Made by a program: the position numbers and the translations under genes. From the NCBI RefSeq assembly GCF_021246445.1, contig NZ_JAJQXW010000001.1, positions 496,001 through 560,000 of the forward strand: a stretch of 64,000 bases of DNA, given 5' to 3'. The notes beneath the pieces were generated by a model. That model did not search any database. It saw only the letters and a program-made list of their open reading frames with translations, and was not told the DNA's origin. This DNA is from Rhabdothermincola salaria (GTDB lineage Bacteria; Actinomycetota; Acidimicrobiia; Acidimicrobiales; Acidimicrobilacustridaceae). The first letter of the stretch is position 1; each line of letters opens with the position of its first letter. Below are positions 13,483 through 28,494 of this stretch, in pieces.

Positions 13483-16030
13483 CTACGACGTCGGCGGAGC
13501 CTGCAGCATCGGGGTGAAGCGGTGCGGTGGCACCGCCGGTGACCACAGGAAGCCCTGGGCCAGCTCACAGTCGAGCCCGAGCAGGGTGGCGCGCTGCTGC
13601 TCGGTCTCGACCCCTTCGGCGACGACCTCGATGCCGAGCAGCCGGGCCACTCCGCAGATGGCCCCCACCAGGGCGACGTCGTCGTCGTTGGGGAGGTCGA
13701 CCACGAAGGACCGGTCGATCTTGAGCTCGTCGATCTCGAGGCGCTTGAGGTAGGCCAGCGACGAGTAGCCCGTGCCGAAGTCGTCGATGGCGACGCGGAC
13801 CCCCATGGCTCGCAGGGCCTGGAGGGTGGCGGTGCTGGGTGTCGAGCACCTCCACCATCGTGCTCTCGGTGACCTCCAGGACGAGCTGGGTGGGGTCCAG
13901 CCCGCTCTCGGCGAGCGCATCGGTGACCACGCCGACCAGGTCGGGGTCGGCCAGCTGCCGGGCCGAGATGTTCACCGACACCGACAGGGCCCGCTCGTCG
14001 TCCGGCCAGGCCGCGGCGTCGTGGCAGGCCTGGCGCAGGATGGCACGGTCGATGGCGCCGATGAGGGCGATCTCCTCGGCGAGGGCGATGAAGTCGTTGG
14101 GTCCGACCGTGCCGATACCCGGACGTTCCCAGCGGGCGAGGGCCTCGGCTCCCACCACCGTGCCGTCCTGGATGCGGACCCGAGGCTGGTAGTGGGGGAC
14201 GATCTCTCCTCGGTCGAGGCCCTGACGCAGGGCGATCTCGGTCTCGAGGCGTCGGCGCGCCCGACCTCGGTCGGCCTGGTCGAACCAGGCGGTGTGGCTG
14301 GGGCCGTGGTCCCCGGCCGGGCCGAGGGCGCCGATGGCGTCGGACAGCAAGGCGTCGGCCTCGGTGCCGAGACGGGACGTGGCCACCCCGACCGAGATCG
14401 ACGGGCGCAGGACGTGGTGGTCGACGGCGACGTCGCTGATGGTGGCCCGCAGGGCGGCGATCCGCTCTTCGACGGTGGTGCGCTCGGCGAGACCGGGGCA
14501 CAGCACGGCGAAGCGGCCGTCGGTCAGGCGACCCACGAACTCGTCGGACGTGACGGCGTTCTCGAGGCAGCGGGCCACGTGCACGACGAGGGCGCCGCTG
14601 GCGTCGTGGCCGAGCGACTGGTCGACGCGGGCCAGCTCGTCGATCTCCATGGTCAGGACGGTGACCCGGCCGTCGAGGCCCTCACGCAGCGCCCGGCGAA
14701 GCCCCTCGACCACCGCGGTGCGGCTGGGCAGGCCGGTGAGGGGGTCGGTGAGGTCGGCCTCGATGTCGGCCTCGCGGCGGCGGGCCTGCTCCATGATGCT
14801 GGCGGCGATGTTGCGCACCTCGTGGACCAGGTCGGTGTCGAGGTCCTCGGGGGGTCGGTCGTCGCGGCCCATGACGAGGGCGACCACGTCGTCGCCACTG
14901 CTGGTGCGGCTTCGCGCCGCCGCCACCCAGCCTCGACTCGCGGGGCCGTGGTCGGCCGCGTCGACGGGTGGCGGCTGGAAGGGGAGGTGGGTGGCCAGGT
15001 TCCCGGAGGTCATGGCCCGGTCCAGCCAGGGCAGCGACGCCAGCGGGACATCGTGGATCATGGCGCGCACCTCGGGAGGCAGGCCCGGGTCGGCGCGGAC
15101 CCGCAGCCGGCCGTCGTGCACCGAGAGCAGGACGACCCGGCGGGCTCCGAGTCGCTCCTCGGCCAGTCGGGCGAGGTCCACCAGGACGTCGTCGACGTCG
15201 ACGCCGGCGACGGCCCGGGCCAGCAACCGGTCGACGCCCTGGCGGAACCGGGCGGCGCGGCGAGCCGACGAGATGTCGCGGATCACGATCTGGAGGTGCT
15301 GGCGGCCCTGCAGTTGCACGACGGTGACGCGGGCACCCACTTCGAGGGTGGCGCCGTCGTCGGCCAGGACGCGGTAGGTGTGGCGCACGACGCGGTCTGG
15401 TCGGCTCCGCACCGAGTCACGGTGCTGTTGGGAGCGGCCCAGGTCGTGGGGGTGCACCACGTCGGCGACGCGTCGGCCCACCACCGGCCGCTCGCGGGCC
15501 CGCAGCAGGAGCTCGGTCGCCTGGTTGGCGTAGACGACGACGCCCGCATCGACGAGCACGACGGCCTCGTCGAGGTTCTCGAGCAGGCTGCGGTAGCGGG
15601 CCCCGAGCTCGCTGCGCTCCTGTTCGGCCTCGACCCAGTCGGTGACGTCGAGGAGGAGCCCCTCGAGCAGGCCCTCGATCGCCGCCCGCCCTCCCTGCTC
15701 CCAGACCCAGCGCACCGCGCCGTCGGCCCGGCGGATCCGGTAGCGCAGGTCGTAGGGCTTCTCCGCGTCGACGGCGATGCTCACCTCGCGGTGCACCATG
15801 GCCAGGTCGTCGGGGTGGATGAAGGCGCTGAAGTCTCGCCCCACGAGGTCGTCGGGCGAGAGGCCCAGGAGGGCCCGGACCTCGCCCCACACGTGGCGCA
15901 CGGTGAAGTCGGCGTCGTGATCGCACAGGTAGGCGATCCCGGGCAGATGGGCGAGCACCGCGTCGGCCGCGCCCTCACCGAGGGTGGTCGCATCCTCGGG
16001 ATCCGGGGCTCTCCCCGCTGAAGTGGTCAC
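13483..16030 (-). pseudogene. PAS-PAS-GAF-GGDEF(degenerate)-EAL phosphodiesterase with a 1-nt frameshift
   Basis: PAS (IHPDDL...RWVWEQG), TDPLTGLP, degenerate TDGRF and GAEALARW in one frame; DDFGTGYSS...KIDRSF...AEGVE...QGF in another. The frames join if one base is removed at 13837-13839. May be a sequencing error. Confidence 0.8.
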
Positions 16031-16230: not shown

Positions 16231-17496
16231 ATGTCCCGTCCGGTGAGCCGTCGCCAGCTCCTCGGCGCGGCGGGTGCCGCCGCCGGGGGCTTCGTGGTGG
16301 GCGGCGTCGTGGGGCCCCTGGCGGCGGGCGGCACCGGGGCCGACGACGATCCTGCGCCGCGGGCCGACGCCACGGCGGTCGCCTTCCACGGCGCCCACCA
16401 GGCCGGTGTGGCCACCGCCCCCCAGGCCCACGTCGTGCTGGCCGGCGTCGACATCGCCGGTTCTGCGGCTGAGTTGGCCGCAGTGCTCGACACCTGGTCG
16501 GTGGCCGCCGCCCGGCTCACGGCGGGGGCCCAGGTGGGGGAGCGGTCGCCGAGCTCGCGGCTGCCCCCTGTCGACACGGGTGAGGCCGACGACCGTCCGC
16601 CGTCGCGGCTGACCGTCACCGTGGCGGTCGGGGCGTCGGCGTTCGACCGGTCGGATCGCTTCGGGCTGGCCGCCCGGCGGCCACCGGGCCTCGTCGAGCT
16701 GCCTGCGGTGGCGGGCGACGACCTCGATCCGCGCTTCTCCGGGGGTGACCTCTGCCTCCAGGTCGGTGCCGACGACCTCCAGGTGGCGTTGCACGCCGTG
16801 CGCAACCTGGTGCGGGTGGCCGAGGGGCGCGCCAGCGTGCGCTGGTCCCACGTGGGCACCGGGCCGCCGCCGGGGGCGGCACCGGTGGTCGGCGACGGCG
16901 CGTCGTCTCATCGCAACCTGCTGGGGTTCCGGGAGGGTACGGCCAACCCTCGCCCCGGCCGCCCCCGCTTCGACGACGCGGTCTGGGTGGCCGAGGGTGA
17001 CGACCCGTCCTGGATGGTGGGTGGCACCTATCTGGCGCTTCGCCGCGTCGACCTCGACCTCGGCGCGTGGGAGGAGCTGACCCTCCTCGACCGGGAGCGG
17101 GTGATCGGACGGCACCGCCGCTCGGGGGCCCCGCTCGGCGATGTCGCCGAGGACGCCCCTCTCGAGCTGGAGGCGGAGGGGCCCGACGGGCGCCCCGTCA
17201 CCGATCCCCGTTCGCACGTGGCCGTCGCCCACCGGGCGTCGCAGGGCCGACGACCGCTGTTTCGTCGCAGCTACAACGTGGTGGAGGGCATCCCGCAGGC
17301 CGAGGGGGCCGGCGCCGGTGGTCTGTTGTTCCTGGCCTTCTGCCGTGACCCGGCCGAGCAGTTCACCCCCGTGCTCGAGGCGCTCGCTGCCGGCGACCTG
17401 CTGGGCACCTACCAGCGCACCGTCGCGTCCGGTGTGTTCGCCGTGCTCCCCGGCCTGCGGCCCGGCGACTCCTGGTCCCAGCACCTGTTCGGCTGA
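16231..17496 (+). CDS. Tat-exported Dyp-type peroxidase (EfeB-like)
   Basis: Twin-Arg SRRQLL signal, FHGAHQAGV, RNLLGFREGTANP, GGTY, proximal His (SHVAVAH), RRSYN, GLLFLAF. Confidence 0.85.
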   Translation: MSRPVSRRQLLGAAGAAAGGFVVGGVVGPLAAGGTGADDDPAPRADATAVAFHGAHQAGVATAPQAHVVLAGVDIAGSAAELAAVLDTWSVAAARLTAGAQVGERSPSSRLPPVDTGEADDRPPSRLTVTVAVGASAFDRSDRFGLAARRPPGLVELPAVAGDDLDPRFSGGDLCLQVGADDLQVALHAVRNLVRVAEGRASVRWSHVGTGPPPGAAPVVGDGASSHRNLLGFREGTANPRPGRPRFDDAVWVAEGDDPSWMVGGTYLALRRVDLDLGAWEELTLLDRERVIGRHRRSGAPLGDVAEDAPLELEAEGPDGRPVTDPRSHVAVAHRASQGRRPLFRRSYNVVEGIPQAEGAGAGGLLFLAFCRDPAEQFTPVLEALAAGDLLGTYQRTVASGVFAVLPGLRPGDSWSQHLFG

Positions 17497-17663: not shown

Positions 17664-17695
17664 GGCGACACCTGACGACCCTCTTGGAGAGACCC

Positions 17696-18820
17696 GTGCC
17701 GCCCATCCCCGTCGACGAGTACCCCCTGCACCAGGCCCCGCTGTCCCTGGCCTACCCGGCGTCGAGCGACCGCAACTTCTACGACCGCTGCTACATCAAC
17801 GCCCACGATCGCACCGGCGAGGTCTTCCTCATCACCGGGCTCGGCGTCTACCCGAACCTCGGCGTCATCGACGCCTTCGCCTGCATCCGTCGCGGCGACC
17901 AGCAACACGTCATCCGCATGTCCGACGCCCTCGGTGACGACCGCATGGACCAGTCGGTCGGTCCGTACCGCATCGAGGTCCTCGACCCCCTCAAGGAGCT
18001 GCGGGTGGTGTGCGAGGGCGACGACCACGGCCTCTCGCTCGACCTGCACTGGCGGGGCTCGTACCCGGCGGTCGACGAGTCACCCCACGTGATGCGGGGG
18101 CCGAGCGGCAAGATCATCCTCGACGCCCAGCGCTTCGCCCAGGTGGGCACCTGGGAGGGGTTCATCCGGGTCGACGGCGAGGAGCTCACCGTCTCTCCCG
18201 ACCAGTGGGTCGGCACCCGTGACCGCTCCTGGGGGATCCGCCCCGTCGGCGAGGCCGAGCCCGCCGGACGGGCCGCCGCCGAGCCCGATCCCAACTACGG
18301 GTTCTGGTGGCTCTACTGCCCGATCCGGATGGAGGACCACGCCCTGGTCTTCATCTTCCAGGAGACCGCCGAGGGCCACCGCTTCCTCAACGACGCCCTG
18401 CGGGTGTGGCCCGAAGAGAGCGGCCGGGGGGTCGAGACCCTCGGCTTCCCCAAGGTCGACATCCAGTACCGCTCCGGCACCCGCATCCCCACGGGCGCCA
18501 CCATCACCGCCACCGAGCCCGACGGCACGCCGTTGGTGGTCGAGATCGAGAGCAAGGGCTACGTGGCCCTCGCCGCCGGTTGCGGCTACGGCTCGGATCC
18601 GCAGTGGACCCACGGCCTCTGGAAGGGCCGCGACTGGGTCGAGCGGGCCACCTACGACCTGAACGACCCGGCCAACGCCGCGGCCACCCAGTTCGGCATG
18701 CTCGACCACGTCGGCATCGCCCGCTGCAACGGCCAGGTCGGTGCCGGACTGTTCGAGCACGCCTCCATCGGCCGCCACGATCCCTCGGGGTTCACCGACT
18801 TCATGTCCGTCGCCCCCTGA
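17696..18820 (+). CDS. Conserved actinobacterial hypothetical protein (predicted beta-rich, tocopherol-cyclase/AttH-like)
   Basis: PVDEYPLHQ, DRNFYDRCY, GLGVYPNLGV and RDRSWGIRPVGE motifs, strong GC3 codon bias. GTG 17696 follows GGAGA; the ORF is open from 17684. The fold assignment is tentative. Confidence 0.75.
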   Translation: MPPIPVDEYPLHQAPLSLAYPASSDRNFYDRCYINAHDRTGEVFLITGLGVYPNLGVIDAFACIRRGDQQHVIRMSDALGDDRMDQSVGPYRIEVLDPLKELRVVCEGDDHGLSLDLHWRGSYPAVDESPHVMRGPSGKIILDAQRFAQVGTWEGFIRVDGEELTVSPDQWVGTRDRSWGIRPVGEAEPAGRAAAEPDPNYGFWWLYCPIRMEDHALVFIFQETAEGHRFLNDALRVWPEESGRGVETLGFPKVDIQYRSGTRIPTGATITATEPDGTPLVVEIESKGYVALAAGCGYGSDPQWTHGLWKGRDWVERATYDLNDPANAAATQFGMLDHVGIARCNGQVGAGLFEHASIGRHDPSGFTDFMSVAP

Positions 18821-18832
18821 CGGGTCCCCCAA

Positions 18833-18961
18833 CGACGCTGCGTGCCCCCAACGCTGGGTTGCCCCCACCGCTGGGTGCCCTCAACGCTGGGTGCCCTCAA
18901 CGCTGGGTGCCCTCAACGCTGGGTGCCCTCAACGCTGGGTGCCCTCAACGCTGGATGCCCC
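18833..18961. repeat. 16-bp tandem repeat (unit CAACGCTGGGTGCCCT), about 8 copies
   Basis: Perfect units at 18882, 18898, 18914 and 18930; variants at about 18833, 18849, 18866 and 18946. Confidence 0.9.
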
Positions 18962-18968
18962 CACCGGG

Positions 18969-19079
18969 TTCTTGCATGGTTTCGACGTGCTCCGGCACGC
19001 CGAAACCATGCAACTACGGCAAGTAGACGGTTCTTGCATGGTCTGGGCGTGCCCTGGCACGCCGAAACCATGCAACTAC
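18969..19079 (-). repeat. Tandem pair of 49-nt hairpin repeats, subfamily A (A1 18969-19017, A2 19031-19079)
   Basis: On the minus strand GTAGTTGCATGGTTTCGGCGTGCC...CCATGCAAGAA; 62-nt period; lies between convergent genes. Confidence 0.9.
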
Positions 19080-19092
19080 GGGAAGCGGGATG

Positions 19093-20700
19093 TCAGGCGA
19101 TCTCGACGAGGTCGAGCATCTCGGCGCTGAAGTAGTCGAGCTGGCCCTCGGGCATCATCAGGCAGCGGTCGGGGGCCAGGTGGCGCACGAACTCGGCGTC
19201 GTGGCTGACCACGATCATGGTGCCCGGCCACGACGCCAGGGCCTGGCCGATGGCGGCGCGGCTCATGGGGTCGAGGTTGTTGGTGGGCTCGTCGAGGAGC
19301 AGCAGGTTGTGGCGCCCCGCCACCAGCTGGGCCAGTGCCAGCTTGGTCTTCTCGCCGCCCGACAACGTGGCCGCGTCCTGGAAGGCCTTGTCGCCCGACA
19401 GGCCGAACATGCCGATGAGGGCGCGCAGCATCTCGTCGCCGAGGCCGGCCTGGTCGCGCATGTGGTCGAGGAGTGAGCGTCCTCCCGTGATGCCCTCGTG
19501 CTCCTGGGCGTAGTAGCCGGGCTCGACCCGCAGTCCCAGCTCCACGTCACCGAGGTCGGGTTCGAGCTGCCCGGCGAGCACCTTGAGCAGGGTGGTCTTG
19601 CCGGCGCCGTTGAGGCCCATGATGAGGAGCCGCTCGCCTCGACCGACGTCGAAGCTGACGTCGGAGAACACGTCGAGGGCCCCGAAGCTCTTCCACACCT
19701 CTCGGGCGGTGATCACGGTGCGTCCGCACGACGGGGGTTCCGGGAAGCGCAGGTCGAGCGACCGTCGGGCGGACGGCCCGTCCACCCGGTGCTCCTCGAT
19801 GCGGGCCACCCGGCGGTCGAGGTTCTTGGCCACTCGGGCCCGCTTGGCCGTCTGGCCGCGCATCTTGTCGGCCTGGGCCGAGAGGCGCCGGATCTCGGAC
19901 TGCTGCTGTTCGGCCACCTTGGCCAGGCGCTCCTCGTCGGCGGCTCGGGACTTGAGGTACTGGGAGTAGGTGCCCTTGTACTCGACGATCTCGCCGACGG
20001 CCTCCTCTTCCTCTCGGTCGAGGTGCACGACGCGGGTGATGGCCTCGTCGAGCAGGTCGAGGTCGTGGCTGATGACCAACAGACCGCCGCGGTAGCCCCG
20101 GAGGAACCGCAGGAGCCAGTCGCGCGCGTCGGCGTCGAGGTGGTTGGTGGGTTCGTCGAGCAGCAACAGGTCGGAGCCGGCGAAGAGGATGCGGGCCAGC
20201 TCGAGGCGCCGGCGCTCGCCTCCGGAGAGGGCGCCCAGGGTGAGCTCGAGGCGGTCGGCAGCCAGGCCGAGGCCGTCGACGAAGCGGCGGGCCTCGGCTT
20301 CGGCGCTGTAGCCGCCGTCGTTCTCGAAGCGCTCCTGGGCGTCGGTGAACCGGATGATGTTGCGCTCGCTGGCGTCTTCCTCCATGGCGATGCGCAGCTT
20401 CTCGAGGCGCTCGGCGGCGGCGTCGAGGCCTCGGCCCGACAGGACGTGGGCCAGGCAGTTGGTGTCGTCGGGGACCGGCTCCTGGCGGGGGTCCTGGGAG
20501 AGGTAGCCGGTGGCCCCCTCGCGTCGGGCGGTTCCCGCCTTGGGGGGCACCGCCCCGCCGAGGACCTTGAACAGCGTGGTCTTACCGGCGCCGTTGCGGC
20601 CGACCAGGCCGACCTTGTCGCCGGCGCGCACCTGGAACGTGACGCCGTCGACGATGGTCTTGCCACCGATCTCGACCACCAGGTCCCGTACGTTCAACAC
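19093..20700 (-). CDS. ABC-F family ATP-binding protein
   Basis: Two NBDs (GRNGAGKT and GLNGAGKT; LSGGE twice; LLLDEPTN twice), interdomain linker, no TM segments. Confidence 0.92.
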   Translation of the reverse strand: MLNVRDLVVEIGGKTIVDGVTFQVRAGDKVGLVGRNGAGKTTLFKVLGGAVPPKAGTARREGATGYLSQDPRQEPVPDDTNCLAHVLSGRGLDAAAERLEKLRIAMEEDASERNIIRFTDAQERFENDGGYSAEAEARRFVDGLGLAADRLELTLGALSGGERRRLELARILFAGSDLLLLDEPTNHLDADARDWLLRFLRGYRGGLLVISHDLDLLDEAITRVVHLDREEEEAVGEIVEYKGTYSQYLKSRAADEERLAKVAEQQQSEIRRLSAQADKMRGQTAKRARVAKNLDRRVARIEEHRVDGPSARRSLDLRFPEPPSCGRTVITAREVWKSFGALDVFSDVSFDVGRGERLLIMGLNGAGKTTLLKVLAGQLEPDLGDVELGLRVEPGYYAQEHEGITGGRSLLDHMRDQAGLGDEMLRALIGMFGLSGDKAFQDAATLSGGEKTKLALAQLVAGRHNLLLLDEPTNNLDPMSRAAIGQALASWPGTMIVVSHDAEFVRHLAPDRCLMMPEGQLDYFSAEMLDLVEIA

Positions 20701-20917
20701 CCTCCAAGGATGCCAGCTGGGGTCTCCGGTCCCGACATGCGCCGTTCAGTGGCGCGATATTCACTCACCGTGGTAGATCTGAGGGCGGTTCGCGCTCGAT
20801 GTGGTCACCCGACGAATTTCCGCGCGAAGTGCTTCAGTTGACCGGAACGCGGGCCGAGAACACGGCATCCGAAAATGGTCCGAACGGACCATTCGCGCAT
20901 CAGCCAGGGAGCACCAC

Positions 20918-23260
20918 ATGGAGCCGACGCAGGAGGTGACCACCAAGCCTGCCTCGGCGCGCCTGTCGGTCGCCGTGCTCGTCGTGGGCACCACCTGGGT
21001 CGTCCTGCACGCCGTGGGCTGGCTCGATCCCGAGGCCAAGATCACCTTCGGCCTGCTGGGGCTCACCACCGCGGTGGCCACCGCCGTCGGCGTCTACCGC
21101 TGGAAGCCGGAGCCCCGGTGGCCCTGGCTCACCCTCCTGGCCGCCCAGATCCTGGCGCTCGTCGGTGGTGGGGTCCGGGCCCTGCTCGACACGCTCGGCG
21201 ACCTGAGCCCCGACCGGTCGCTCGTGCCCGACCTGTTGGCCCTTCCCGCCTACATCCTCCTGGCCGTCAGCCTGGCCGGCCTGGCCCGCTCCGCCCTGCG
21301 CAGCCGCGACGCCAACCTCGACGCCGTCCTCGACGCCGTCATCGCCTCGTTGGCCCTGCTCACCCTGGCCTGGGTGTACCTGGTCACCCCGGCCCTGGCC
21401 CAGGCCGACGCCCCGCTGTCGGTGCGCCTGGTGCTGGCGGCCTACCCGCCGGCGTCGATGTTCGTGGTGGCCATGGCCGCCCGCATGCTCTTCACGTCGG
21501 CCCGCAAGCCCCCGGTGGCCTTCCGGCTCGTCATGGCCTGCATGGTCGGGCTGCTCGTCGGCGACGTGCTCTACATGCTCGCCGACACCCGCCTGGCCGA
21601 GATCCCCACCACGATCCTCGATGTGCCCTACGCCATGGCCTACGTCGCCTTGGCCGCCGCGGTGCTGCACCCCTCGATCCGTCGGGTGTCCGAGCCGGTG
21701 AGCGCCGCCGACGACACCCCCCGCATCGGCCGCCTGGTCTTCGTGGCCGCCGCCCTCTCCATCCCGGTCATCGTGTTGCTGGTGCCGGCCGAGACCCTCG
21801 AGACCACCAGCGAGCGGGTCGTCGTGGGCGCCATCGTGTTGTTGCTCACCGGCGCCGCGTCCTGGCGGATGTTCCGGGCGCTGCGCCAGCAGGCCCGGGC
21901 CCAGGATCGCCTGGTGCACCAGGCCACCCACGACGTCCTCACCGGGCTGGGCAACCGCCTGTTCGTGGTCGAGCACCTGACCAAGGCCCTCGACGACGAC
22001 CGGCGCGGCTCCATCGCCGTGCTCGTCATCGACCTCGATCGCTTCAAGTTGGTCAACGACTCGATGGGTCACACCTTCGGTGACGAGCTGTTGTTGGCGG
22101 TGGCTCGCCGGCTCCTGGACAGCGTGCGCCCCGGCGACGTGGTCGCCCGCATCGGTGGTGACGAGTTCATGGTGGTGTTGCACGGGGTGCGTGACGAGTC
22201 CGCCGCTCGCGACGCGGCCGAGCGCACCCGCCTGAGCTTCAAGTACCCGTTGGCCGCCGGCGACGTGGAGATGACCGTGTCGGCCAGCGTCGGTGTGTCC
22301 TACGCCCCGCCCGGCTACCTGCCCGAGGCGGGGGCCGAGTCGCTCCTGCGCGACGCCGACACCGCCATGTCACGGGCCAAGGACGCCGGCCGCGACACCG
22401 TCTCGGTGTTCGACACCTCCATGCGCGAGCGGGTGGCCGAGCGCCTCACCCTCGAGCGCGAGCTGCGCCACGCGCTCGAGCGCGGCGAGCTCGAGGTCTA
22501 CTACCAGCCCAAGTTGCGCCTCTCGGACATGCGGGTGGTCGGCATGGAGGCCCTCCTGCGCTGGAACCACCCCGAGCGGGGCACGGTGCGTCCGGACCTG
22601 TTCATCCCCATCGCCGAGGACACCGGGATGATCGACGAGATCGGCCTGTGGGTACTCGATCAGGCCTGTGGCCACCTGGCCCGCCAGCGGGCCGGGCTGC
22701 GCCAGCCCGAGCTGCTCACCGTCAGCGTGAACCTGTCGGTGCGCCAGCTGCGCGACGACTCCCTGGTCGACAACGTGGCCCGCACCCTGCTGCGCCACGG
22801 GCTGCCCGGCAACGCCCTGTGCCTCGAGCTCACCGAGTCGATGTTCATGGAGAACCTCGATGGCATCCGCCGTCATCTCGAAGCGGTGCGGGCCTGCGGC
22901 GTGAAGATCTCCATCGACGACTTCGGCACCGGCTACTCGTCGCTGGCCTATCTGCGCAGCCTGGCCGTCGACGAGGTCAAGATCGACCGGGCCTTCGTGA
23001 GCGATCTGGACCCCCAGAGCGGTTCGGGCACCAGCGTGGTGGCCGCCGTGGTGGCGATCGCCAGCTCGATGGGCATCGCCACGGTGGCCGAGGGCATCGA
23101 GACCGAGGAGCAGGCCGACGTGCTGCGCGAGCTCGGCTGCACCGAGGGTCAGGGCTTCCTCTACTCCCGTCCGCTGCCCGCCGGTGAGGCGGTGGCGGTG
23201 ATGGAGGAGATCGGCCTGGCGGCCGGCACCCGCCTCCGGGTGGTGCCGCACTCGGCCTGA
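20918..23260 (+). CDS. Multi-TM sensor diguanylate cyclase/phosphodiesterase (GGDEF-EAL)
   Basis: About 9-10 TM helices, HDVLTGLGNR, RPGD I-site, intact GGDEF, MEALLRW, DDFGTGYSS, AEGIE, QGF. Confidence 0.92.
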   Translation: MEPTQEVTTKPASARLSVAVLVVGTTWVVLHAVGWLDPEAKITFGLLGLTTAVATAVGVYRWKPEPRWPWLTLLAAQILALVGGGVRALLDTLGDLSPDRSLVPDLLALPAYILLAVSLAGLARSALRSRDANLDAVLDAVIASLALLTLAWVYLVTPALAQADAPLSVRLVLAAYPPASMFVVAMAARMLFTSARKPPVAFRLVMACMVGLLVGDVLYMLADTRLAEIPTTILDVPYAMAYVALAAAVLHPSIRRVSEPVSAADDTPRIGRLVFVAAALSIPVIVLLVPAETLETTSERVVVGAIVLLLTGAASWRMFRALRQQARAQDRLVHQATHDVLTGLGNRLFVVEHLTKALDDDRRGSIAVLVIDLDRFKLVNDSMGHTFGDELLLAVARRLLDSVRPGDVVARIGGDEFMVVLHGVRDESAARDAAERTRLSFKYPLAAGDVEMTVSASVGVSYAPPGYLPEAGAESLLRDADTAMSRAKDAGRDTVSVFDTSMRERVAERLTLERELRHALERGELEVYYQPKLRLSDMRVVGMEALLRWNHPERGTVRPDLFIPIAEDTGMIDEIGLWVLDQACGHLARQRAGLRQPELLTVSVNLSVRQLRDDSLVDNVARTLLRHGLPGNALCLELTESMFMENLDGIRRHLEAVRACGVKISIDDFGTGYSSLAYLRSLAVDEVKIDRAFVSDLDPQSGSGTSVVAAVVAIASSMGIATVAEGIETEEQADVLRELGCTEGQGFLYSRPLPAGEAVAVMEEIGLAAGTRLRVVPHSA

Positions 23261-23293
23261 CGGTCCCGGCGCGGGTGGCGCGCCGGAGGGGGC

Positions 23294-24052
23294 TCAGCTG
23301 GCGGCGCGCACCCGACCGCTGTCGGCTTCCCACTCGGGGGCCGACACACCGGCTTCGAGGCCACGGCCGAGCCACAGCATCTCGTAGAGGTCGGGGTCGG
23401 TGAAGGCCAGCCGGGGTCCGAACTCCTGCATGTCGCAGTAGCAGGCGATGCTCGACGGCGACCCGAGGTAGCCCTTGGGCTCGAGCCCGGCGAAGGTCTG
23501 CCAGGCCCGGCCGCACACGGCCTGGATGAGGTCGAGGGCCACCAGGTCGAACACGGCGAGGCCGAGCTCCACCCCGCTCTTGGCGGCCAGGGTGATGACG
23601 CCTTGCACCAGGGCCAGGCTGATGAGGCCGTTGGTGGACGACTTGCGGTACTCGGGCATCACCGCGATGGTCGCCACGTCCCAGATGGTGCTGGGGTCGA
23701 CGTCGAGGCCCGAGCGGGCCAGCACGGCGTCGATGTCCTCGCCCCAGATGCGCTCGAGGTCGTTGAGGCTCTTGAAGCCGGCGGGGGAGTCGACGATGAG
23801 GCGGACCACGCCGGCGGGCAGCCGGCGGGGGTGGTCGAGGACGACGAGGAAGACCGACCCGGGCTCGTACTCGTCGTACTCCTCGCGCAGGAACTCCTCG
23901 GTCTCGCCGAAGAACTCGCCGAACACGGCTCGCTCGACGTGGCGACCGAGTTCGGAGCGGGGGTCCGACGCGGGGATGACGTAGAGGCCGAAGGGGGTGG
24001 CGCTGCGCCCTTCCTCTCGCATCACCGCCGAGGCCAGCTCCTGGAGGTCCAC
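23294..24052 (-). CDS. GNAT-fold acyltransferase, N-acyl amino acid synthase (FeeM)/LuxI-like (tentative)
   Basis: VERAVF...EYDEYEPGSVFLVV...AGVVRLI...WDVATIAVMPEYR fits the GNAT beta-strand/motif A layout. Confidence 0.6.
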   Translation of the reverse strand: MDLQELASAVMREEGRSATPFGLYVIPASDPRSELGRHVERAVFGEFFGETEEFLREEYDEYEPGSVFLVVLDHPRRLPAGVVRLIVDSPAGFKSLNDLERIWGEDIDAVLARSGLDVDPSTIWDVATIAVMPEYRKSSTNGLISLALVQGVITLAAKSGVELGLAVFDLVALDLIQAVCGRAWQTFAGLEPKGYLGSPSSIACYCDMQEFGPRLAFTDPDLYEMLWLGRGLEAGVSAPEWEADSGRVRAAS

Positions 24053-24055
24053 CGG

Positions 24056-24442
24056 TCAGAACCCCTTGGCCACGCAGCGGTTGGTGCGGAAGAAGTCGGC
24101 GGTGAAGTCGAGGGCCGCGGTGGGGTCGAAGGCCTTGCAGGTGTAGATGTCGACGCTGAAGAACTTGACCGGTTCCTCCCACGCGTAGAAGTGGGCGCCG
24201 GAGGTCTCCCAGTGGATCCAGCCGGCCCAGCCGTAGAGGTCGGAGCGGTGGGTGGCGGGCTCCATGAGGGCCGTCATGTCGATGACGCCGGAGAGCTGCG
24301 ACAGGTAGCTGGAGATCTCCTCGGCGGAGATGAGGTGGTCGACCTGGCCTTCGATGACGAGGCGCTGGCGATGGATCATGGGCGCCAGGTCGGGGAGCTC
24401 GGCGGGGTCCAGGACGAGCTGGGGGCTTCGTACGTCGATCAC
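24056..24442 (-). CDS. Pyruvoyl-dependent S-adenosylmethionine decarboxylase-like proenzyme
   Basis: 128 aa; GWIHWETSGAHFYAWE aligns with the AdoMetDC self-cleavage segment, plus SVDIYTCKAFDP...F at the C-terminus; GAGGA RBS. Confidence 0.75.
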   Translation of the reverse strand: MIDVRSPQLVLDPAELPDLAPMIHRQRLVIEGQVDHLISAEEISSYLSQLSGVIDMTALMEPATHRSDLYGWAGWIHWETSGAHFYAWEEPVKFFSVDIYTCKAFDPTAALDFTADFFRTNRCVAKGF

Positions 24443-24677
24443 GCTGAGGGGTCCTCATCGGGCCAGGTGGACGCACGGCGCGTCACACGATCGGGACTCC
24501 ACCCGCCGCAGAGTATGGAGGGCGCGGCCCGCCGAGGGAAAGGATCTGCGGCGGATTTCACGCCTTCCGAGCGGATTTCGTCCCGAGTGCGGACGCACCG
24601 TGGCGACAGCCTCACGCTACGTGTGTGTGATCGGTGCATCGGGGTGGGACTGCCCGGACGGGGTAAGGCTGTCGGAC

Positions 24678-25718
24678 ATGGACGCCATCACCATCGAACC
24701 GGGTCGATCGAACAGCGTGCGCCTCGAGCCGGTGCCCGAACCCGGCCCGGAGCAGGGCCCCATCGTGGTGGAGAGCATCGCCACCGGGGTCTGCGGCACC
24801 GATGCCGAGATCGTGGCCGGGGAGTACGGCGAGGCCCCCGAGGGCGAGGGCCGCCTGGTGCTCGGCCACGAGTCGTTGGGGCGCGTCGTCGACCCGGGCC
24901 CCTACGGCGGGTTCGAGGTCGGCGACCTGGTGGTGGGCGTGGTGCGCCGCCCCGACCCGGTGCCGTGCCGCAGCTGTGCGGTGGGGGAGTCGGACATGTG
25001 CCGCAACGGGCGCTTCACCGAGCGGGGCATCAAGGGTCGCCACGGCTTCATGGCCGAGCGGTGGGGCATCGAACCCGAGCACGCCGTGCGGGTGAGCCCC
25101 GCTCTGGGGGCGCTCGGCGTGCTGATGGAGCCGGCGTCGGTGGTGGCCAAGGCGTGGGAGCAGGTCGACCGGGTCGGCGACCGGGCGTTCTGGGAGCCGC
25201 GCACGGTGCTGGTGACCGGGACCGGGCCGATCGGCCTGCTGGCCGCCCTGATCGGGTGCCAGCGGGGCCTCGACGTGGTCGTGCTGGGCCGCCACGACAC
25301 CGGTCCCAAGGCCGACCTGGTGACGGGCCTGGGGGCCCGGCTCGTGTTCGACATCGACGAGCTCGACGACGATCCGGACGTGGTGGTCGAGGCCACCGGT
25401 GCGGGCACGGTGATCGCCGGAGCCCTCGATCGGGTGGCGCCGGGCGGGGTGGTGTGCCTCACCGGCCTGGGCGGTGACGGGCACCGGCCCCGGTCGACCC
25501 TCGCCGAGCTGGCCACCCAGCTGGTGCTCGACAACACGGTGGTGGTCGGCTCGGTGAACGCCAACCGACGCCACTTCGTCAAGGCCCACGACGTGTTGTG
25601 CGCCGCCGACCAGGACTGGCTGGCGGGGCTGATCACCCGTCGCATGAGCCCGACCGAGGCGGTCGACGCCCTGCGCGAGGGCGGCGACGACGTGAAGGCC
25701 GTCGTCGACTGGACCTGA
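24678..25718 (+). CDS. Zinc-dependent glucose 1-dehydrogenase (MDR family)
   Basis: GVCGTD, LGHE, CRSC...DMC, ERGIKG, GTGPIG, GSVNANRRH. Confidence 0.88.
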   Translation: MDAITIEPGRSNSVRLEPVPEPGPEQGPIVVESIATGVCGTDAEIVAGEYGEAPEGEGRLVLGHESLGRVVDPGPYGGFEVGDLVVGVVRRPDPVPCRSCAVGESDMCRNGRFTERGIKGRHGFMAERWGIEPEHAVRVSPALGALGVLMEPASVVAKAWEQVDRVGDRAFWEPRTVLVTGTGPIGLLAALIGCQRGLDVVVLGRHDTGPKADLVTGLGARLVFDIDELDDDPDVVVEATGAGTVIAGALDRVAPGGVVCLTGLGGDGHRPRSTLAELATQLVLDNTVVVGSVNANRRHFVKAHDVLCAADQDWLAGLITRRMSPTEAVDALREGGDDVKAVVDWT

Positions 25719-25838
25719 AGCCGGGCGCCCCGCCCACGACCGGAGCTGATGCCGGGCGCGCCACGGGCGGGACCCGGTGGCGGGTCCCGCCCGTGTGCCG
25801 GGGGGGGGATGGCGTTGTGGCGCGTGGCGCCCGGTGCG

Positions 25839-26006
25839 TCAGCGACGCCCGGCGAGAGCCCGCTCGAGCTCGGTCTTCGACATCTTCGAGCGGCCGGGGA
25901 TCTTGCGGCGCTTGGCCTCGTCGTAGAGCTGGTCGTAGGTGGGGCCGTCGTCCTGAGAGCTTGGTGCCAAGGAGCTGGGGCGGGTGGCGATCTTGGTCAT
26001 GGGCAT
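25839..26006 (-). CDS. Small Rho-N-like/stress protein (55 aa; not in the ORF track)
   Basis: MPMTKIATRPSSLAPSSQDDGPTYDQLYDEAKRRKIPGRSKMSKTELERALAGRR; GGAGGAG RBS; LYDEAK..I.GRSKM.K.EL motif. Confidence 0.75.
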   Translation of the reverse strand: MPMTKIATRPSSLAPSSQDDGPTYDQLYDEAKRRKIPGRSKMSKTELERALAGRR

Positions 26007-26109
26007 GGGGTGGGTTCTCCTCCGATGCGAGACGACGGGGTAGCCGTGCTCCTACCCACTGCGTCGCTGGGCAGACGTGGTGTCGTGGCGAAGCGGTCGC
26101 GTGGCGGCG

Positions 26110-26373
26110 TCAGGACGCCACGTCCTCGCCCGGCTGGGGCACGACCGGCGAGGGCTCGGGTCGCGGATCGATGGGCGAGGGCTCCTCCGGAGGGACCACC
26201 GGGCCGGGTTCGGCCGGGCCCGGCGGGGAGGGGACCACCGGGTCCCCCGGAGTGGGCTCGGGGAGGATCGGCGACGGCTCGTGCCCGGGCAGGATGGGAC
26301 TGGGGTCGGTGGTGGTGGCCCGGGGGCGGCTGGGCGATCCCGCGGGGAGCGGCGCGTGCTGTGTGTGTCGCAT
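26110..26373 (-). CDS. Proline-rich small hypothetical protein
   Basis: Repeated PSPI(L/D)P and PVVP units; GGGTAG just upstream of the start. Confidence 0.45.
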   Translation of the reverse strand: MRHTQHAPLPAGSPSRPRATTTDPSPILPGHEPSPILPEPTPGDPVVPSPPGPAEPGPVVPPEEPSPIDPRPEPSPVVPQPGEDVAS

Positions 26374-26542
26374 GGCCGCGTCCTACCCGAGAGCGCCCAC
26401 CGCTACCCATGGGCGACCGCTCTCGGCCGGATGCTCGGCCGGATGGAGGTCTACGGACCAGCGTCCGGGGGTAGACGCCCCGTCGAGCCGGCCTGCGCGT
26501 CTGCGGCGCGCACCGGACGTCCCGCCGAACGAAGGAGCAGCG

Positions 26543-26743
26543 ATGCCCGACAACGCCGACACCACGCCCGAGACCCAGAGCGCCGACGAGGCCGACGCCG
26601 AGGCGACGCACAAGGCCGATCGCATGCCCACCCCCGAAGAGGAGCGGCTCGCCGAGAGCCAGGAGCTCGATCCCGAGGTGGCCGAGTCCTACAAGGAAGC
26701 GGCCGAGCGCGGTGCCAACGTCAAGGGCGAAGGCGAGATCTGA
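26543..26743 (+). CDS. Small acidic hypothetical protein
   Basis: GAAGGAG RBS; MPDNADTTPET...ADRMPTPEEERLAE...GANVKGEGEI. Confidence 0.75.
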   Translation: MPDNADTTPETQSADEADAEATHKADRMPTPEEERLAESQELDPEVAESYKEAAERGANVKGEGEI

Positions 26744-26825
26744 GTGGGCCGTCGCATGGTGGCAGACCGTCTCCACCCGGTGGGCGTCAGCGCCCCGACG
26801 CCGGGCTCGTCGGTAGGGTGGCACG

Positions 26826-27152
26826 GTGTCCGCTGATCTCGATCAACCGCTCAAGATCGTCGTCTCCTCCGAGGGTGACACCGTCGTGGTGTCGCTCACC
26901 GGGGAGCTCGACCCCCACACCGTGCCGATGCTGGCCGACGAGCTCGATGACGCCATCGACGGCGGCGCCACCTCGGTGGCCCTCGACCTGTCGGGGCTCA
27001 CGTTCATCGATTCGTCGGGCCTCCGGGTGGTGATCGCCACCCACCGGCGCCTCGAGGAGTCCGGTGGCCGCTTGGTGCTGCGAGCCCCGAGCGACACCGT
27101 TCGCCGCCTGCTGGAGCTCACGGGCCTGCTCGGCCACATCGACATCGTCTGA
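26826..27152 (+). CDS. STAS-domain anti-anti-sigma factor (RsbV-like)
   Basis: GELD...LDLSGLTFIDSSGL with the phosphorylatable Ser. Confidence 0.9.
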   Translation: MSADLDQPLKIVVSSEGDTVVVSLTGELDPHTVPMLADELDDAIDGGATSVALDLSGLTFIDSSGLRVVIATHRRLEESGGRLVLRAPSDTVRRLLELTGLLGHIDIV

Positions 27153-27331
27153 CGTACCGATCCGATCAGCATCGCCCAGGGGTGTCCGCCCCCGGGCGAT
27201 GCTGCGTCCGGCACCGGCTCGCGTGCCCACCACCCGTTGCCGCATCCGGTGTCGCCCACCAACCCAACGACCAGCCCTGCGCCGGCCGGCTCCCGCCGCC
27301 GGTGACCGCCGCCGCCCGAGGAGCCCCCGCC

Positions 27332-27718
27332 ATGACCGACGCCGAGTCACGACCGGTCCGTCTCACGTTTCCCGCCGAGGCCCGCAACCTGCGGATCGCT
27401 CGTCTCACCGCGGCCGGTGTCGCCGGTGAGGCCGGCTTCTCGCTCGACGCGATCGAGGACCTGCGGGTGGCGGTCGACGAGCTGTGCGCCGTGCTCGTCG
27501 ACGGCGCCGGGCCCGACGCCGACGCCACCGTCACCTACCGGGTCGTCGGCGACCAGGTGGTCGTCGAGGGGGAGTGCCAGAACGGCGCGGCCGACGCCGA
27601 CCTGCACTCCGTCGCCCGTGAGCTGCTGAAGATGACGACCGACGACTACACCGTGGCCAAGGCCGGCGATCGCGTCTCGTTCCGCATGGTCAAGCAGCGC
27701 CACGCCACGTCGGTGTGA
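27332..27718 (+). CDS. Anti-sigma factor (RsbW-like)
   Basis: LTFPAEARNLRIARL...IEDLRVAVDELC; GAGGAG RBS; coupled to the sigma gene. Confidence 0.8.
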   Translation: MTDAESRPVRLTFPAEARNLRIARLTAAGVAGEAGFSLDAIEDLRVAVDELCAVLVDGAGPDADATVTYRVVGDQVVVEGECQNGAADADLHSVARELLKMTTDDYTVAKAGDRVSFRMVKQRHATSV

Positions 27719-28494
27719 TGATGGCCGAGACCCAGGATCCGCCGATCGCCGAGTGGTTCGTCGAGTTCCGGCGCACTCGCGACCGCCGCCTGCGCAACAA
27801 GCTCGTCGAGCACCACATGCGTGTCGTCGAGTACTCCGTGCGCCGCTACTCGAACCGGGGGGTCCCCACCGAGGACCTGCGCCAGGTCGGGCTCATGGCG
27901 GTGGTCAACGCCGTCGACCGCTTCGACCCCGAGGTCGGGGTGGCCTTCTCCACCTTCGCCAGCCGCACCATCGAGGGCGAACTCAAGCGGTACTTCCGGG
28001 ACAAGACCTGGTCGGTGCGCCCGCCGCGCCGGGCCCAGGAGCTGCACCTCGACCTGCGGCGCACCGACGAGGAGCTCACCCACGCCCTCGGCCGGTCTCC
28101 CACCGTCGCCGAACTGGCCGACGCGCTCGACGTGAGCGAGGACCACGTCCTCGAAGCGCTCGAGGCGGGCACCGCCCACCAGGCGGCCAGCCTCGACCAG
28201 CCCGCACCGGGCGGAGACGACGAGGGGGCCACCCGTGGCGAGCGTCTGCTCGGCGAGGTCGACGGTGGCTTCGGTCGGGTCGACCGCGAGATGATCATCC
28301 GCGAGCTGGTGGCAGGGCTGCCCGAGCGGGAGCGCACGATCATCTTCCTGCGCTTCTTCGAGGGCAAGACCCAGCCCGAGATCGCCGAGATGGTCGGCGT
28401 GAGCCAGTCGTACCTCTCGCGCATCCTGCGGCGCACGCTGCTCGAGCTGAAGGATCGCCTGGGCGACCTCCCCCTCTACGACGAGGGGCTGTAG
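27715..28494 (+). CDS. SigB/SigF/SigG-family sigma factor
   Basis: EDLRQVG...AVDRFDP...FSTFASRTIEGELKRYFRD, GRSPTVAELA, region 4 TQPEIAEMVGVSQ. Confidence 0.93.
   Translation: MMMAETQDPPIAEWFVEFRRTRDRRLRNKLVEHHMRVVEYSVRRYSNRGVPTEDLRQVGLMAVVNAVDRFDPEVGVAFSTFASRTIEGELKRYFRDKTWSVRPPRRAQELHLDLRRTDEELTHALGRSPTVAELADALDVSEDHVLEALEAGTAHQAASLDQPAPGGDDEGATRGERLLGEVDGGFGRVDREMIIRELVAGLPERERTIIFLRFFEGKTQPEIAEMVGVSQSYLSRILRRTLLELKDRLGDLPLYDEGL

Follow-up and report, generated by a model that had tools for sequence, protein, structure and literature searches.

A candidate synthase-receptor cassette in Rhabdothermincola salaria: an AdoMetDC-fold protein and a FeeM/LuxI-like acyltransferase encoded beside a membrane GGDEF-EAL protein

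Genes and features of the locus

A stretch of 64,000 nucleotides (nt) from the actinobacterium Rhabdothermincola salaria was analysed (assembly GCF_021246445.1, contig NZ_JAJQXW010000001.1, positions 496,001 to 560,000; referred to below as the window), with GC contents of 0.68-0.78. Three neighbouring genes at positions 20918 to 24442 of the window are the subject of this report. Two of them form a pair on the minus strand and encode a protein of 128 amino acids (aa) resembling S-adenosylmethionine decarboxylase (AdoMetDC) and a 252-aa acyltransferase-like protein of the GCN5-related N-acetyltransferase (GNAT) type. The third, on the plus strand, encodes a membrane protein with GGDEF and EAL domains. 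A preliminary description of the sequence had singled out these genes as a candidate signalling module. The features, with positions in the window, are the following.

24056-24442, minus strand: AdoMetDC-like open reading frame (ORF), GTG start, 128 aa; first gene of the pair
23294-24052, minus strand: GNAT-like acyltransferase ORF, GTG start, 252 aa; FeeM/LuxI superfamily
20918-23260, plus strand: GGDEF-EAL membrane protein ORF; the ATG at 20918 gives 780 aa, an alternative GTG at 20801 gives 819 aa
20918-21895, plus strand: N-terminal polytopic domain of the GGDEF-EAL protein, residues 1-326, from hydropathy; candidate ligand-sensing part
21923-22396, plus strand: GGDEF domain, residues 336-493 (Pfam PF00990, 138.5 bits)
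22457-23173, plus strand: EAL domain, residues 514-752 (Pfam PF00563, 243.1 bits)
23261-23293, unstranded: spacer of 33 nt between convergent stop codons, containing an 8-bp all-GC inverted repeat (23266-23273 pairing with 23279-23286)
24200-24202, minus strand: codon of Ser81 of the 128-aa protein, aligned with the pyruvoyl-forming Ser63 of Thermotoga maritima-type AdoMetDC
24137-24139, minus strand: codon of Cys102 of the 128-aa protein, aligned with the catalytic Cys83 of T. maritima-type AdoMetDC
24443-24656, unstranded: divergent intergenic region of 214 nt upstream of the enzyme pair, from the ORF map

The two minus-strand ORFs are separated by only 3 nt (24053-24055), and the acyltransferase gene converges on the GGDEF-EAL gene so that their stop codons lie 33 nt apart. 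Both spacings agree with the preliminary description, which had placed the decarboxylase-like gene 3 nt upstream of the GNAT gene and the end of the pair 33 nt from a convergent GGDEF-EAL gene with multiple transmembrane segments. The nearest named relatives of the genes were found in Iamiaceae and other metagenome-assembled genomes (MAGs) of Acidimicrobiales. A promoter and terminator scan of 20500-25000 found neither, and no sigma-70-like site in 24443-24656, the region in which the promoter of the enzyme pair presumably lies. The hairpin in the 33-nt spacer was no more stable than shuffled sequence (z -0.05), and with the empty terminator scan this means that it provides no evidence for a terminator. 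An Rfam scan of 19000-27000 at E <= 1 gave no match.

The decarboxylase-like protein

The 128-aa protein matched the Pfam family PF02675 (AdoMet_dc) with 41.4 bits against a cut-off of 25 but failed the NCBIfam equivalog for SAM (S-adenosylmethionine) decarboxylase, TIGR03330, with 18.3 bits against a cut-off of 75.65. This places it in the superfamily but not among the equivalogs. Its predicted structure (mean predicted local distance difference test, pLDDT, 95.7) was best matched by T. maritima AdoMetDC, entry 1tmi, with a TM-score of 0.70/0.76 and a root-mean-square deviation (rmsd) of 2.2. Over the three entries 1tmi, 1vr7 and 1tlu the TM-score was 0.69-0.76 and the rmsd 2.2-2.3, and the Aquifex entry 2iii was matched as well. 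The model has the alpha-beta sandwich fold of class 1 AdoMetDC. Sequence-based searches of solved structures, whether started from single proteins or from family profiles, yielded nothing meaningful for the two enzymes of the pair, and the profile of the 128-aa family reached no AdoMetDC. Both enzymes are placed by fold comparison only.

A word-based search gave 2881 relatives of the 128-aa protein. The family is strongly conserved, with 40 invariant columns in 28 sequences and the invariant motif YGWAGW[IV]HWE[TAS]SGAHFY.W..P..FFSVD.Y.C. Canonical AdoMetDC genes were taken from 14 actinobacterial genomes, and the 13 sequences shorter than 200 aa were aligned with the family using MAFFT. Ser81, present in 28/28 family members, aligned with the pyruvoyl-forming Ser, and the invariant Cys102 aligned with the catalytic Cys (T. 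maritima C83). The C-terminal part of this alignment is anchored by hhalign, which paired FFSVDIYTC of the family with YAAVDIFTC of canonical AdoMetDC at a probability of 90%. Glu31, also invariant, aligned with a conserved Glu in the first strand of the canonical enzyme. The residue preceding Ser81 is Thr, or Ala or Ser in relatives, where canonical AdoMetDC has Glu.

The essential residues of T. maritima-type AdoMetDC are S63, H68 and C83 (PMC10407285, section 7), and of these it is H68 that has no counterpart in the 128-aa family. As Li et al. (2023) report in the passages of their paper on SpeD homologues (PMC10407285), AdoMetDC homologues have been neofunctionalised to arginine (SpeDA) and ornithine (SpeDC) decarboxylases; genomes without SpeE are the setting in which the changed substrate specificity was found, and a rewritten active-site strand accompanies the substrate change in the known cases. 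The same passages contain 0 mentions each of GNAT, acetyltransferase and Actinobacteria. In the R. salaria genome (97.8% complete) no spermidine synthase was detected with PF01564 or TIGR00417, in keeping with its reported absence from the window, though by the same type of scan that missed the 128-aa gene. The whole-genome PF02675 scan was blank although the 128-aa protein scores 41 bits when scanned directly, so that blanks from such genome scans are weak evidence of absence.

The 128-aa protein thus shares with class 1b AdoMetDC (SpeD/SpeH) and with SpeDA/SpeDC the fold, the PF02675 score and the Ser and Cys positions, and shares with SpeDA/SpeDC a genome in which SpeE was not found. It differs from class 1b AdoMetDC in the replacement of H68 by Tyr and of the Glu before the Ser by Thr, Ala or Ser, and its gene sits with an acyltransferase gene and not with polyamine genes. 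The label 'AdoMetDC-like decarboxylase' given in the preliminary description therefore stands as regards the fold, the Ser, the Cys and the Pfam match, but a canonical enzyme is contradicted by Tyr86, by the Thr before the Ser and by the failure of TIGR03330. We read the protein as a pyruvoyl enzyme that is probably active and whose active site has been rewritten.

The acyltransferase

The 252-aa protein matched no Pfam family at E <= 0.1, Autoind_synth (PF00765) included, and its sole NCBIfam match was a weak one to TIGR03694, the exosortase-associated N-acyl amino acid synthase (E 7e-4, 19.1 bits against a cut-off of 111.95). PF21926 had no match in the source genome. Homologues were nevertheless numerous in the exhaustive profile search, with 904 clusters (50% identity) at E <= 1e-3 and 322 at E <= 1e-30, as against the 49 homologues, all unnamed, given by a word-based search.

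The assignment of this protein to the GNAT fold, tentative in the preliminary description, was confirmed by the fold search, the best matches being of the FeeM and LuxI types. The AlphaFold model, made with 38 sequences, had a pLDDT of 94.3 and a predicted template modelling score of 0.91 (pTM). Its top Foldseek match was the coenzyme A (CoA)-dependent acyl-homoserine lactone (AHL) synthase BjaI in complex with SAM (E 1.5e-8), and FeeM, LasI, MesI and RpaI were also among the top matches. In the ESM Atlas all the named neighbour clusters of the protein were FeeM, Acetyltransf_5 or Autoind_synth. The model has both the FeeM fold and the AHL-synthase fold, including the N-terminal substrate-binding helices. 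An acidic residue, D125 of the pair W124-D125, lies in a W-D-x-A-T-x-A-V strand, which hhalign set on the E-F-S-R-L strand of a FeeM-family protein (L121; family comparison probability 64%, E 6e-5); the comparison with another FeeM-family sequence, L120, gave a probability of 0.2%. These comparison sequences came from a search of 151 genomes in which only 3 were above the cut-off. Given that the protein has the FeeM/LuxI fold but scores under every curated threshold, it represents a new family in the FeeM/LuxI superfamily and belongs to neither of the named families.

The likeness to the LuxI-type AHL synthases (BjaI 5w8a, LasI 1ro5, RpaI 6wn0, TofI 3p2h and EsaI 1kzf) consists in the fold and in the acidic residue after the Trp on the central strand. 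In contrast, the 252-aa protein is only 9-16% identical to them in structural alignments, is 40-50 residues longer and lacks a PF00765 match, and its decarboxylase partner has no counterpart in LuxI systems. To FeeM and the N-acyl amino acid synthases it is linked by weak sequence signals (TIGR03694, PF13444 via a fused relative, and hhalign) but it falls under the curated cut-offs of PF21926, PF13444 and TIGR03694, and no acyl carrier protein (ACP) gene recurs beside it. The pairing with a decarboxylase suggests an amine as acceptor and not an amino acid. PMC5539150 mentions a protein of Mycobacterium sp. djl-10 that belongs to Acetyltransf_5 and carries the annotation LuxI but did not group with Gram-negative LuxI. 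One low-GC relative, P0311 (670 aa), contains two tandem acyltransferase domains in one protein and has no Pfam match.

The membrane GGDEF-EAL protein

The GGDEF and EAL domains are both full length in Pfam terms and contain the motifs RPGD (I-site) at 404, GGDEF at 413, EALLR at 544, DDFGTG at 667, KIDRAF at 688, EGIET at 725 and QGFLY at 745. With all motifs present, both active-site motif sets are intact by sequence, as had been stated in the preliminary description. The Kyte-Doolittle scan indicated about ten transmembrane segments in residues 12-319 joined by short loops, an architecture that fits a ligand sitting in the membrane. This N-terminal domain matched no Pfam family except 7TMR-DISM_7TM, weakly (E 0.042), and no named family above 0.77 in the ESM Atlas. 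With 24 GGDEF matches over the 3.9 Mb of the source genome, adjacency of one of them to the enzyme pair by chance would be of the order of 1%.

Recurrence of the enzyme pair

The conservation of the pair was examined in the best 80 of 430 loci with decarboxylase relatives, these 430 being taken from 455 pattern matches in a species-representative genome collection. The acyltransferase gene directly followed the decarboxylase gene in 77/80 loci, the exceptions being L057, L081 and L087. The loci span Acidimicrobiia, Thermoleophilia, other Actinomycetota and Saccharibacteria, and the 77 rows of the acyltransferase tree included 40 from Micromonosporaceae, 6 from Blastococcus, 2 from Cryobacterium and 1 from Mycolicibacterium sphagni. 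Three loci were from Saccharibacteria: L085 and L095 on contigs of 645 and 445 kb with 47-48% GC, and L091 on a contig of 3.3 kb. A small number of MAG bins that carry labels of other phyla may be mis-binned (for example L093, 75% GC, labelled Jannaschia). A natural fusion of both enzymes was found in one case, the continuous 381-aa protein P0287, which at 21.4 bits stays just under the PF13444 cut-off of 22.4. Prediction of a complex between the acyltransferase and the 128-aa protein scored 0.00 against a mark of 0.32, which is no evidence either way. Full-text literature searches found no paper describing the decarboxylase-acyltransferase pair, and as far as these searches reach the cassette is uncharacterised.

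Adjacency to membrane sensor genes

A gene for a polytopic membrane signalling protein was the immediate neighbour of the pair in 35/80 loci, made up of 30 with a GGDEF-EAL protein and 5 with a histidine kinase. The GGDEF-EAL neighbours occurred in three arrangements. The convergent one is the Acidimicrobiia type. An upstream co-directional gene was found in five Blastococcus loci, one Actinoplanes locus (L055) and two MAGs, and a downstream co-directional gene in two loci, in one of which (L100) the ORF calls give an overlapping stop and start. The histidine kinases, polytopic with about 9 transmembrane segments and with GAF-HisKA-HATPase architecture, were found in M. sphagni, the three Saccharibacteria and one MAG, and where measured the kinase start was 39-44 nt downstream of the acyltransferase gene. 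The question of whether the trio recurs, raised in the preliminary description, can thus be answered: it is co-conserved well outside the circle of close relatives, and its genes occur in several different orders. With the GNAT fold confirmed and no spermidine synthase found elsewhere in the genome by the scans of limited sensitivity described above, none of the three outcomes that the description had named as refuting it was observed.

The transmembrane domains of the GGDEF-EAL partners were homologous across three lineage groups (hhalign 91-94%, E about 1e-7, 236-250 columns). Those of the histidine kinases, which served as an equally hydrophobic negative control, gave hhalign probabilities of <= 1.5% and are not homologous to them. 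Among 18 acyltransferase loci of Acidimicrobiia, partly from the same genomes as the set of 80, a GGDEF-EAL gene was adjacent in 16 and a decarboxylase gene in 13; the two loci without a GGDEF-EAL neighbour were that of a distant homologue with 27% identity and one at a contig end. The partner types were placed on an acyltransferase tree (quick IQ-TREE maximum likelihood, SH-like approximate likelihood ratio test (SH-aLRT) support, midpoint root) and required 13 changes compared with an average of 38.8 for shuffled labels. The Actinoplanes locus L055, which has the same GGDEF-EAL transmembrane domain, was nested in a clade otherwise without receptors. This indicates an independent re-association, so that the association arose more than once.

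Other genes were seen near the pair in Micromonosporaceae. A gene for a 333-aa Ser/Thr kinase lies on the same strand after the pair in nine loci (L097, L074, L066, L073, L090, L056, L079, L083 and L099), at about 6290-7330 (+) in these loci; it could be a third type of signalling partner or could reflect synteny among close relatives. L097 has in addition a sulfotransferase gene upstream. In 20 loci, L030 and L031 among them, a gene for an ATP-binding cassette (ABC) exporter with fused membrane and ATPase domains lies upstream on the opposite strand, and L031 has two such genes adjacent to each other. These exporters may serve export of the product or may be mere synteny.

Phylogenetic profile

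The distribution of the three genes was followed in 251 evenly drawn genomes of the class, that is the source genome and 250 others. The acyltransferase was found in 12 genomes, the decarboxylase-like gene in 10 and some match to the transmembrane domain in 49, one of which (G247) carries a flag as unpublished. A close homologue of the transmembrane domain (E <= 4e-44) was present in 11/11 of the other acyltransferase-positive genomes against 2/239 of the negative ones. Relatives are not independent, and these co-occurrences are therefore given as counts without a statistical test.

Mean pairwise identity over 16 loci was highest for the decarboxylase-like protein (0.62), followed by the catalytic part of the GGDEF-EAL protein (0.51), the acyltransferase (0.44) and the transmembrane domain (0.38). 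The two most variable parts, the acyltransferase and the transmembrane domain, are those that would set the specificity of signal and receptor.

Proposed mechanism and alternatives

The folds and the gene neighbourhood together suggest a tentative but quite possible reading, in which the product of the pair is an N-acyl amine and the adjacent membrane domain senses it. The two minus-strand genes would form a translationally coupled operon for a small N-acyl amine, a lipid-like amide. The divergent AdoMetDC-fold protein, probably pyruvoyl-dependent and self-cleaving before Ser81, would convert an amino acid or SAM to a primary amine, and the GNAT enzyme of the FeeM/LuxI superfamily would acylate this amine using acyl-ACP or acyl-CoA as donor. 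The product would partition into the membrane, where the ten-helix domain of the GGDEF-EAL protein may perceive it, and perception would shift the balance between synthesis and hydrolysis of cyclic di-GMP (c-di-GMP). Such a cassette would be an autocrine or quorum-like synthase-receptor unit, and in other lineages the same enzyme pair appears to be wired to the polytopic GAF histidine kinase of about 9 transmembrane segments.

Several observations weigh against this reading. The receptor and synthase genes of R. salaria are convergent and thus not co-transcribed here. At the position of T. maritima H68 the 128-aa family has the invariant Tyr86, with an invariant His84 two residues earlier, and the loss of the canonical processing His makes self-processing of the protein uncertain. 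In three genomes of the class sample (G109, G086 and G216) both acyltransferase and receptor are retained but an AdoMetDC-fold gene is absent from the whole genome, which indicates that the decarboxylase step is not obligatory and is dispensable in some lineages. The relatives search added a fourth locus without an adjacent decarboxylase gene (L006 of G013), and inspection of the ORFs, without a Pfam scan, revealed no replacement decarboxylase in L006, L012, L017 or L019, whose neighbours vary by locus. No polytopic GGDEF-EAL protein or histidine kinase is encoded beside the pair in 45/80 loci, namely the 9 Micromonosporaceae loci with the Ser/Thr kinase downstream and 36 loci without any neighbouring signalling gene; most Micromonosporaceae loci are without an adjacent receptor gene. 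The counts exceed the number of independent events, as many of the loci come from closely related genomes. Conversely, G010 and G089 have a close receptor homologue without the enzyme pair. In G010, which is of the same family as the source genome, a GGDEF-EAL orthologue of 55% identity lies beside an ABC-F gene (L118, G010:C1:1744000-1756000) and neither enzyme of the pair occurs anywhere in the genome. It therefore appears to be a receptor 'solo', without its presumed synthase. Lastly, divergence of the acyltransferase was correlated with that of the transmembrane domain when the catalytic part was controlled for (partial Mantel r 0.57 over 16 loci, 11/5000 permutations as high), but the signal fades when three divergent loci are removed (r 0.25, 504/5000), and co-variation of the two is thus unproven.

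The pair might instead serve the cell envelope and not signalling, its product being an N-acyl amine or aminolipid similar to the OlsB-type ornithine lipids. The c-di-GMP or kinase protein would then monitor or regulate the state of envelope and biofilm, and the product would not be its dedicated ligand. The FeeM/Acetyltransf_5 superfamily, of which we take OlsB to be a member, includes lipid N-acyltransferases, and a role of this kind would suit both the 45 loci without an adjacent polytopic receptor and the ABC exporter gene found upstream in 20 Micromonosporaceae loci. However, no second acyltransferase or lipid-assembly gene recurs with the pair, and the partner is a polytopic sensor whose output swaps between GGDEF-EAL and histidine kinase from lineage to lineage. 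A change of output domain with adjacency kept is the pattern expected of a receptor, and the co-occurrence of the acyltransferase with a close receptor homologue in the class sample points the same way, so an envelope role appears unlikely. The GNAT protein PanZ is a maturation or regulatory partner of PanD, and MbaA answers norspermidine via NspS. By analogy, the acyltransferase-like protein could play such a part for the pyruvoyl proenzyme and not be biosynthetic itself, a free amine or polyamine then acting on the GGDEF-EAL protein. The tight translational coupling of the pair and the one fusion would agree with this, and the missing processing His makes a cleavage helper conceivable. We consider it improbable, given that the acyltransferase persists beside the receptor in the three genomes without an AdoMetDC-fold gene, that its 252 aa comprise the complete FeeM/LuxI architecture with many invariant polar residues of active-site type, and that its 904-cluster family is conserved as deeply as an enzyme family.

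The same three genomes weigh against an obligatory route through decarboxylated SAM. In this variant of the main reading, which has a chemistry of its own, the 128-aa protein would still be a SAM decarboxylase and the LuxI-like enzyme would acylate decarboxylated SAM with loss of methylthioadenosine, giving a decarboxy analogue of an AHL, for example an N-acyl-3-aminopropyl derivative. Both proteins derive from SAM-binding folds, the top Foldseek match is the BjaI-SAM complex, the Ser, Cys and Glu positions of AdoMetDC are kept and no spermidine synthase was found that would consume decarboxylated SAM. Against this, the protein reaches only 18 bits of the 75.65 needed for the TIGR03330 equivalog, and its active-site strand reads T-S-G-A-H-F-Y instead of E-S-H-x-x-x-H, a kind of rewriting that accompanies a change of substrate in the cases treated in PMC10407285, so that this route, too, has a low probability. 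A further view, with no functional link at all, would combine an ordinary polyamine SAM decarboxylase, as the Pfam label AdoMet_dc on the small protein might imply, with an unrelated acetyltransferase and a GGDEF-EAL neighbour retained by inherited synteny. The convergent order within Acidimicrobiia is explicable by vertical inheritance, and in G010 the receptor gene still adjoins the ABC-F gene where the pair is missing. This view is nonetheless extremely improbable: the pair is adjacent in 77 of the 80 loci, in several families and two phyla, and exists as a fusion; receptor adjacency occurs in three orientations and with two output types; no SpeE was found; and the small protein fails the equivalog cut-off.

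Comparison with known signalling systems

In Vibrio LuxM/LuxN and CqsA/CqsS and in Legionella LqsA/LqsS, autoinducer synthase genes lie beside genes for polytopic membrane receptors. The defining trait of such a synthase-receptor cassette, a synthase gene beside a polytopic sensor gene recurring across lineages, is also observed for the genes described here, and LuxM/LuxN and CqsA/CqsS would be the nearest functional precedents of a signalling cassette. The likeness extends to the sensor being a multi-pass protein without a large external domain, and in 5/80 loci to its being a histidine kinase as in those systems. The differences are several. The acyltransferase has the AHL-synthase fold while matching neither PF00765 nor PF21926, and the putative synthase is a pair of enzymes with an AdoMetDC-fold component. 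In R. salaria, and in 30/80 loci, the candidate receptor is fused to GGDEF-EAL, so that the predicted output is c-di-GMP and not a phosphorelay. The hosts are Actinomycetota and Saccharibacteria.

A second comparison is with NspS-MbaA of Vibrio cholerae, where, as proposed here, a molecule related to amines controls a membrane GGDEF-EAL protein. MbaA however senses via a periplasmic binding protein, of which none is encoded at the present locus, and the signal there is a free polyamine whose synthase genes are not adjacent.

The use of acyl amides from a LuxI-like synthase as signals is considered a characteristic of Gram-negative bacteria. We think it somewhat unlikely that the cassette represents an undescribed family of lipid-amide autoinducers of Actinomycetota and their Saccharibacteria epibionts, made by a rewritten pyruvoyl enzyme together with a LuxI/FeeM-like acyltransferase and read by a multi-pass domain with c-di-GMP or histidine-kinase output. 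In that case, Gram-positive bacteria and members of candidate phyla would possess their own signalling logic resembling that of AHLs. Saccharibacteria live on actinobacterial hosts, and the presence of the enzyme pair in both means that a shared signal would bear on communication between epibiont and host, which might then share a chemical channel. To our knowledge the ligands of most membrane c-di-GMP enzymes of Actinomycetota are not known, and the cassette is a candidate source of ligand for a defined ten-helix sensor domain with homologues in several lineages of actinobacteria. It would also put the AdoMetDC fold in a new context, a third fate besides decarboxylation of SAM and of arginine or ornithine. 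The new elements of the present analysis are the GGDEF-EAL form of the cassette, the homology of the sensor across lineages, the class-wide profile, the variants lacking the decarboxylase and the receptor solos. The pair is small (128 + 252 codons), so the genes can be expressed together and the question of the product addressed directly.

Neighbouring genes in the window

Further features were noted around the cassette. A partner-switching set at 26826-28494 (+) consists of an anti-sigma antagonist (STAS), an anti-sigma kinase (HATPase_c_2) and a sigma factor of group 3; the kinase scores under its Pfam cut-off and its gene overlaps that of the sigma factor. In the related loci inspected, this set did not accompany the cassette. 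A second GGDEF-domain gene lies ~6 kb upstream at about 14312-14749 (-), contig positions 510312-510749, in an open frame of 983 aa (E 9e-19). The GGDEF-EAL gene of the source genome adjoins an ABC-F gene, as does its orthologue in G010. Further out are a Dyp-type peroxidase with a weak match to a twin-arginine translocation (TAT) signal at 16231-17496 (+) and, after it, a 378-aa ORF without a Pfam family at 17684-18820 (+). Between this ORF and the ABC-F gene, at 18835-19085, are two tandem repeat arrays, one at 18835-18960 with a 16-nt unit repeated 7.8 times (93% matches) and one at 18967-19085 with a 62-nt unit repeated 1.9 times.

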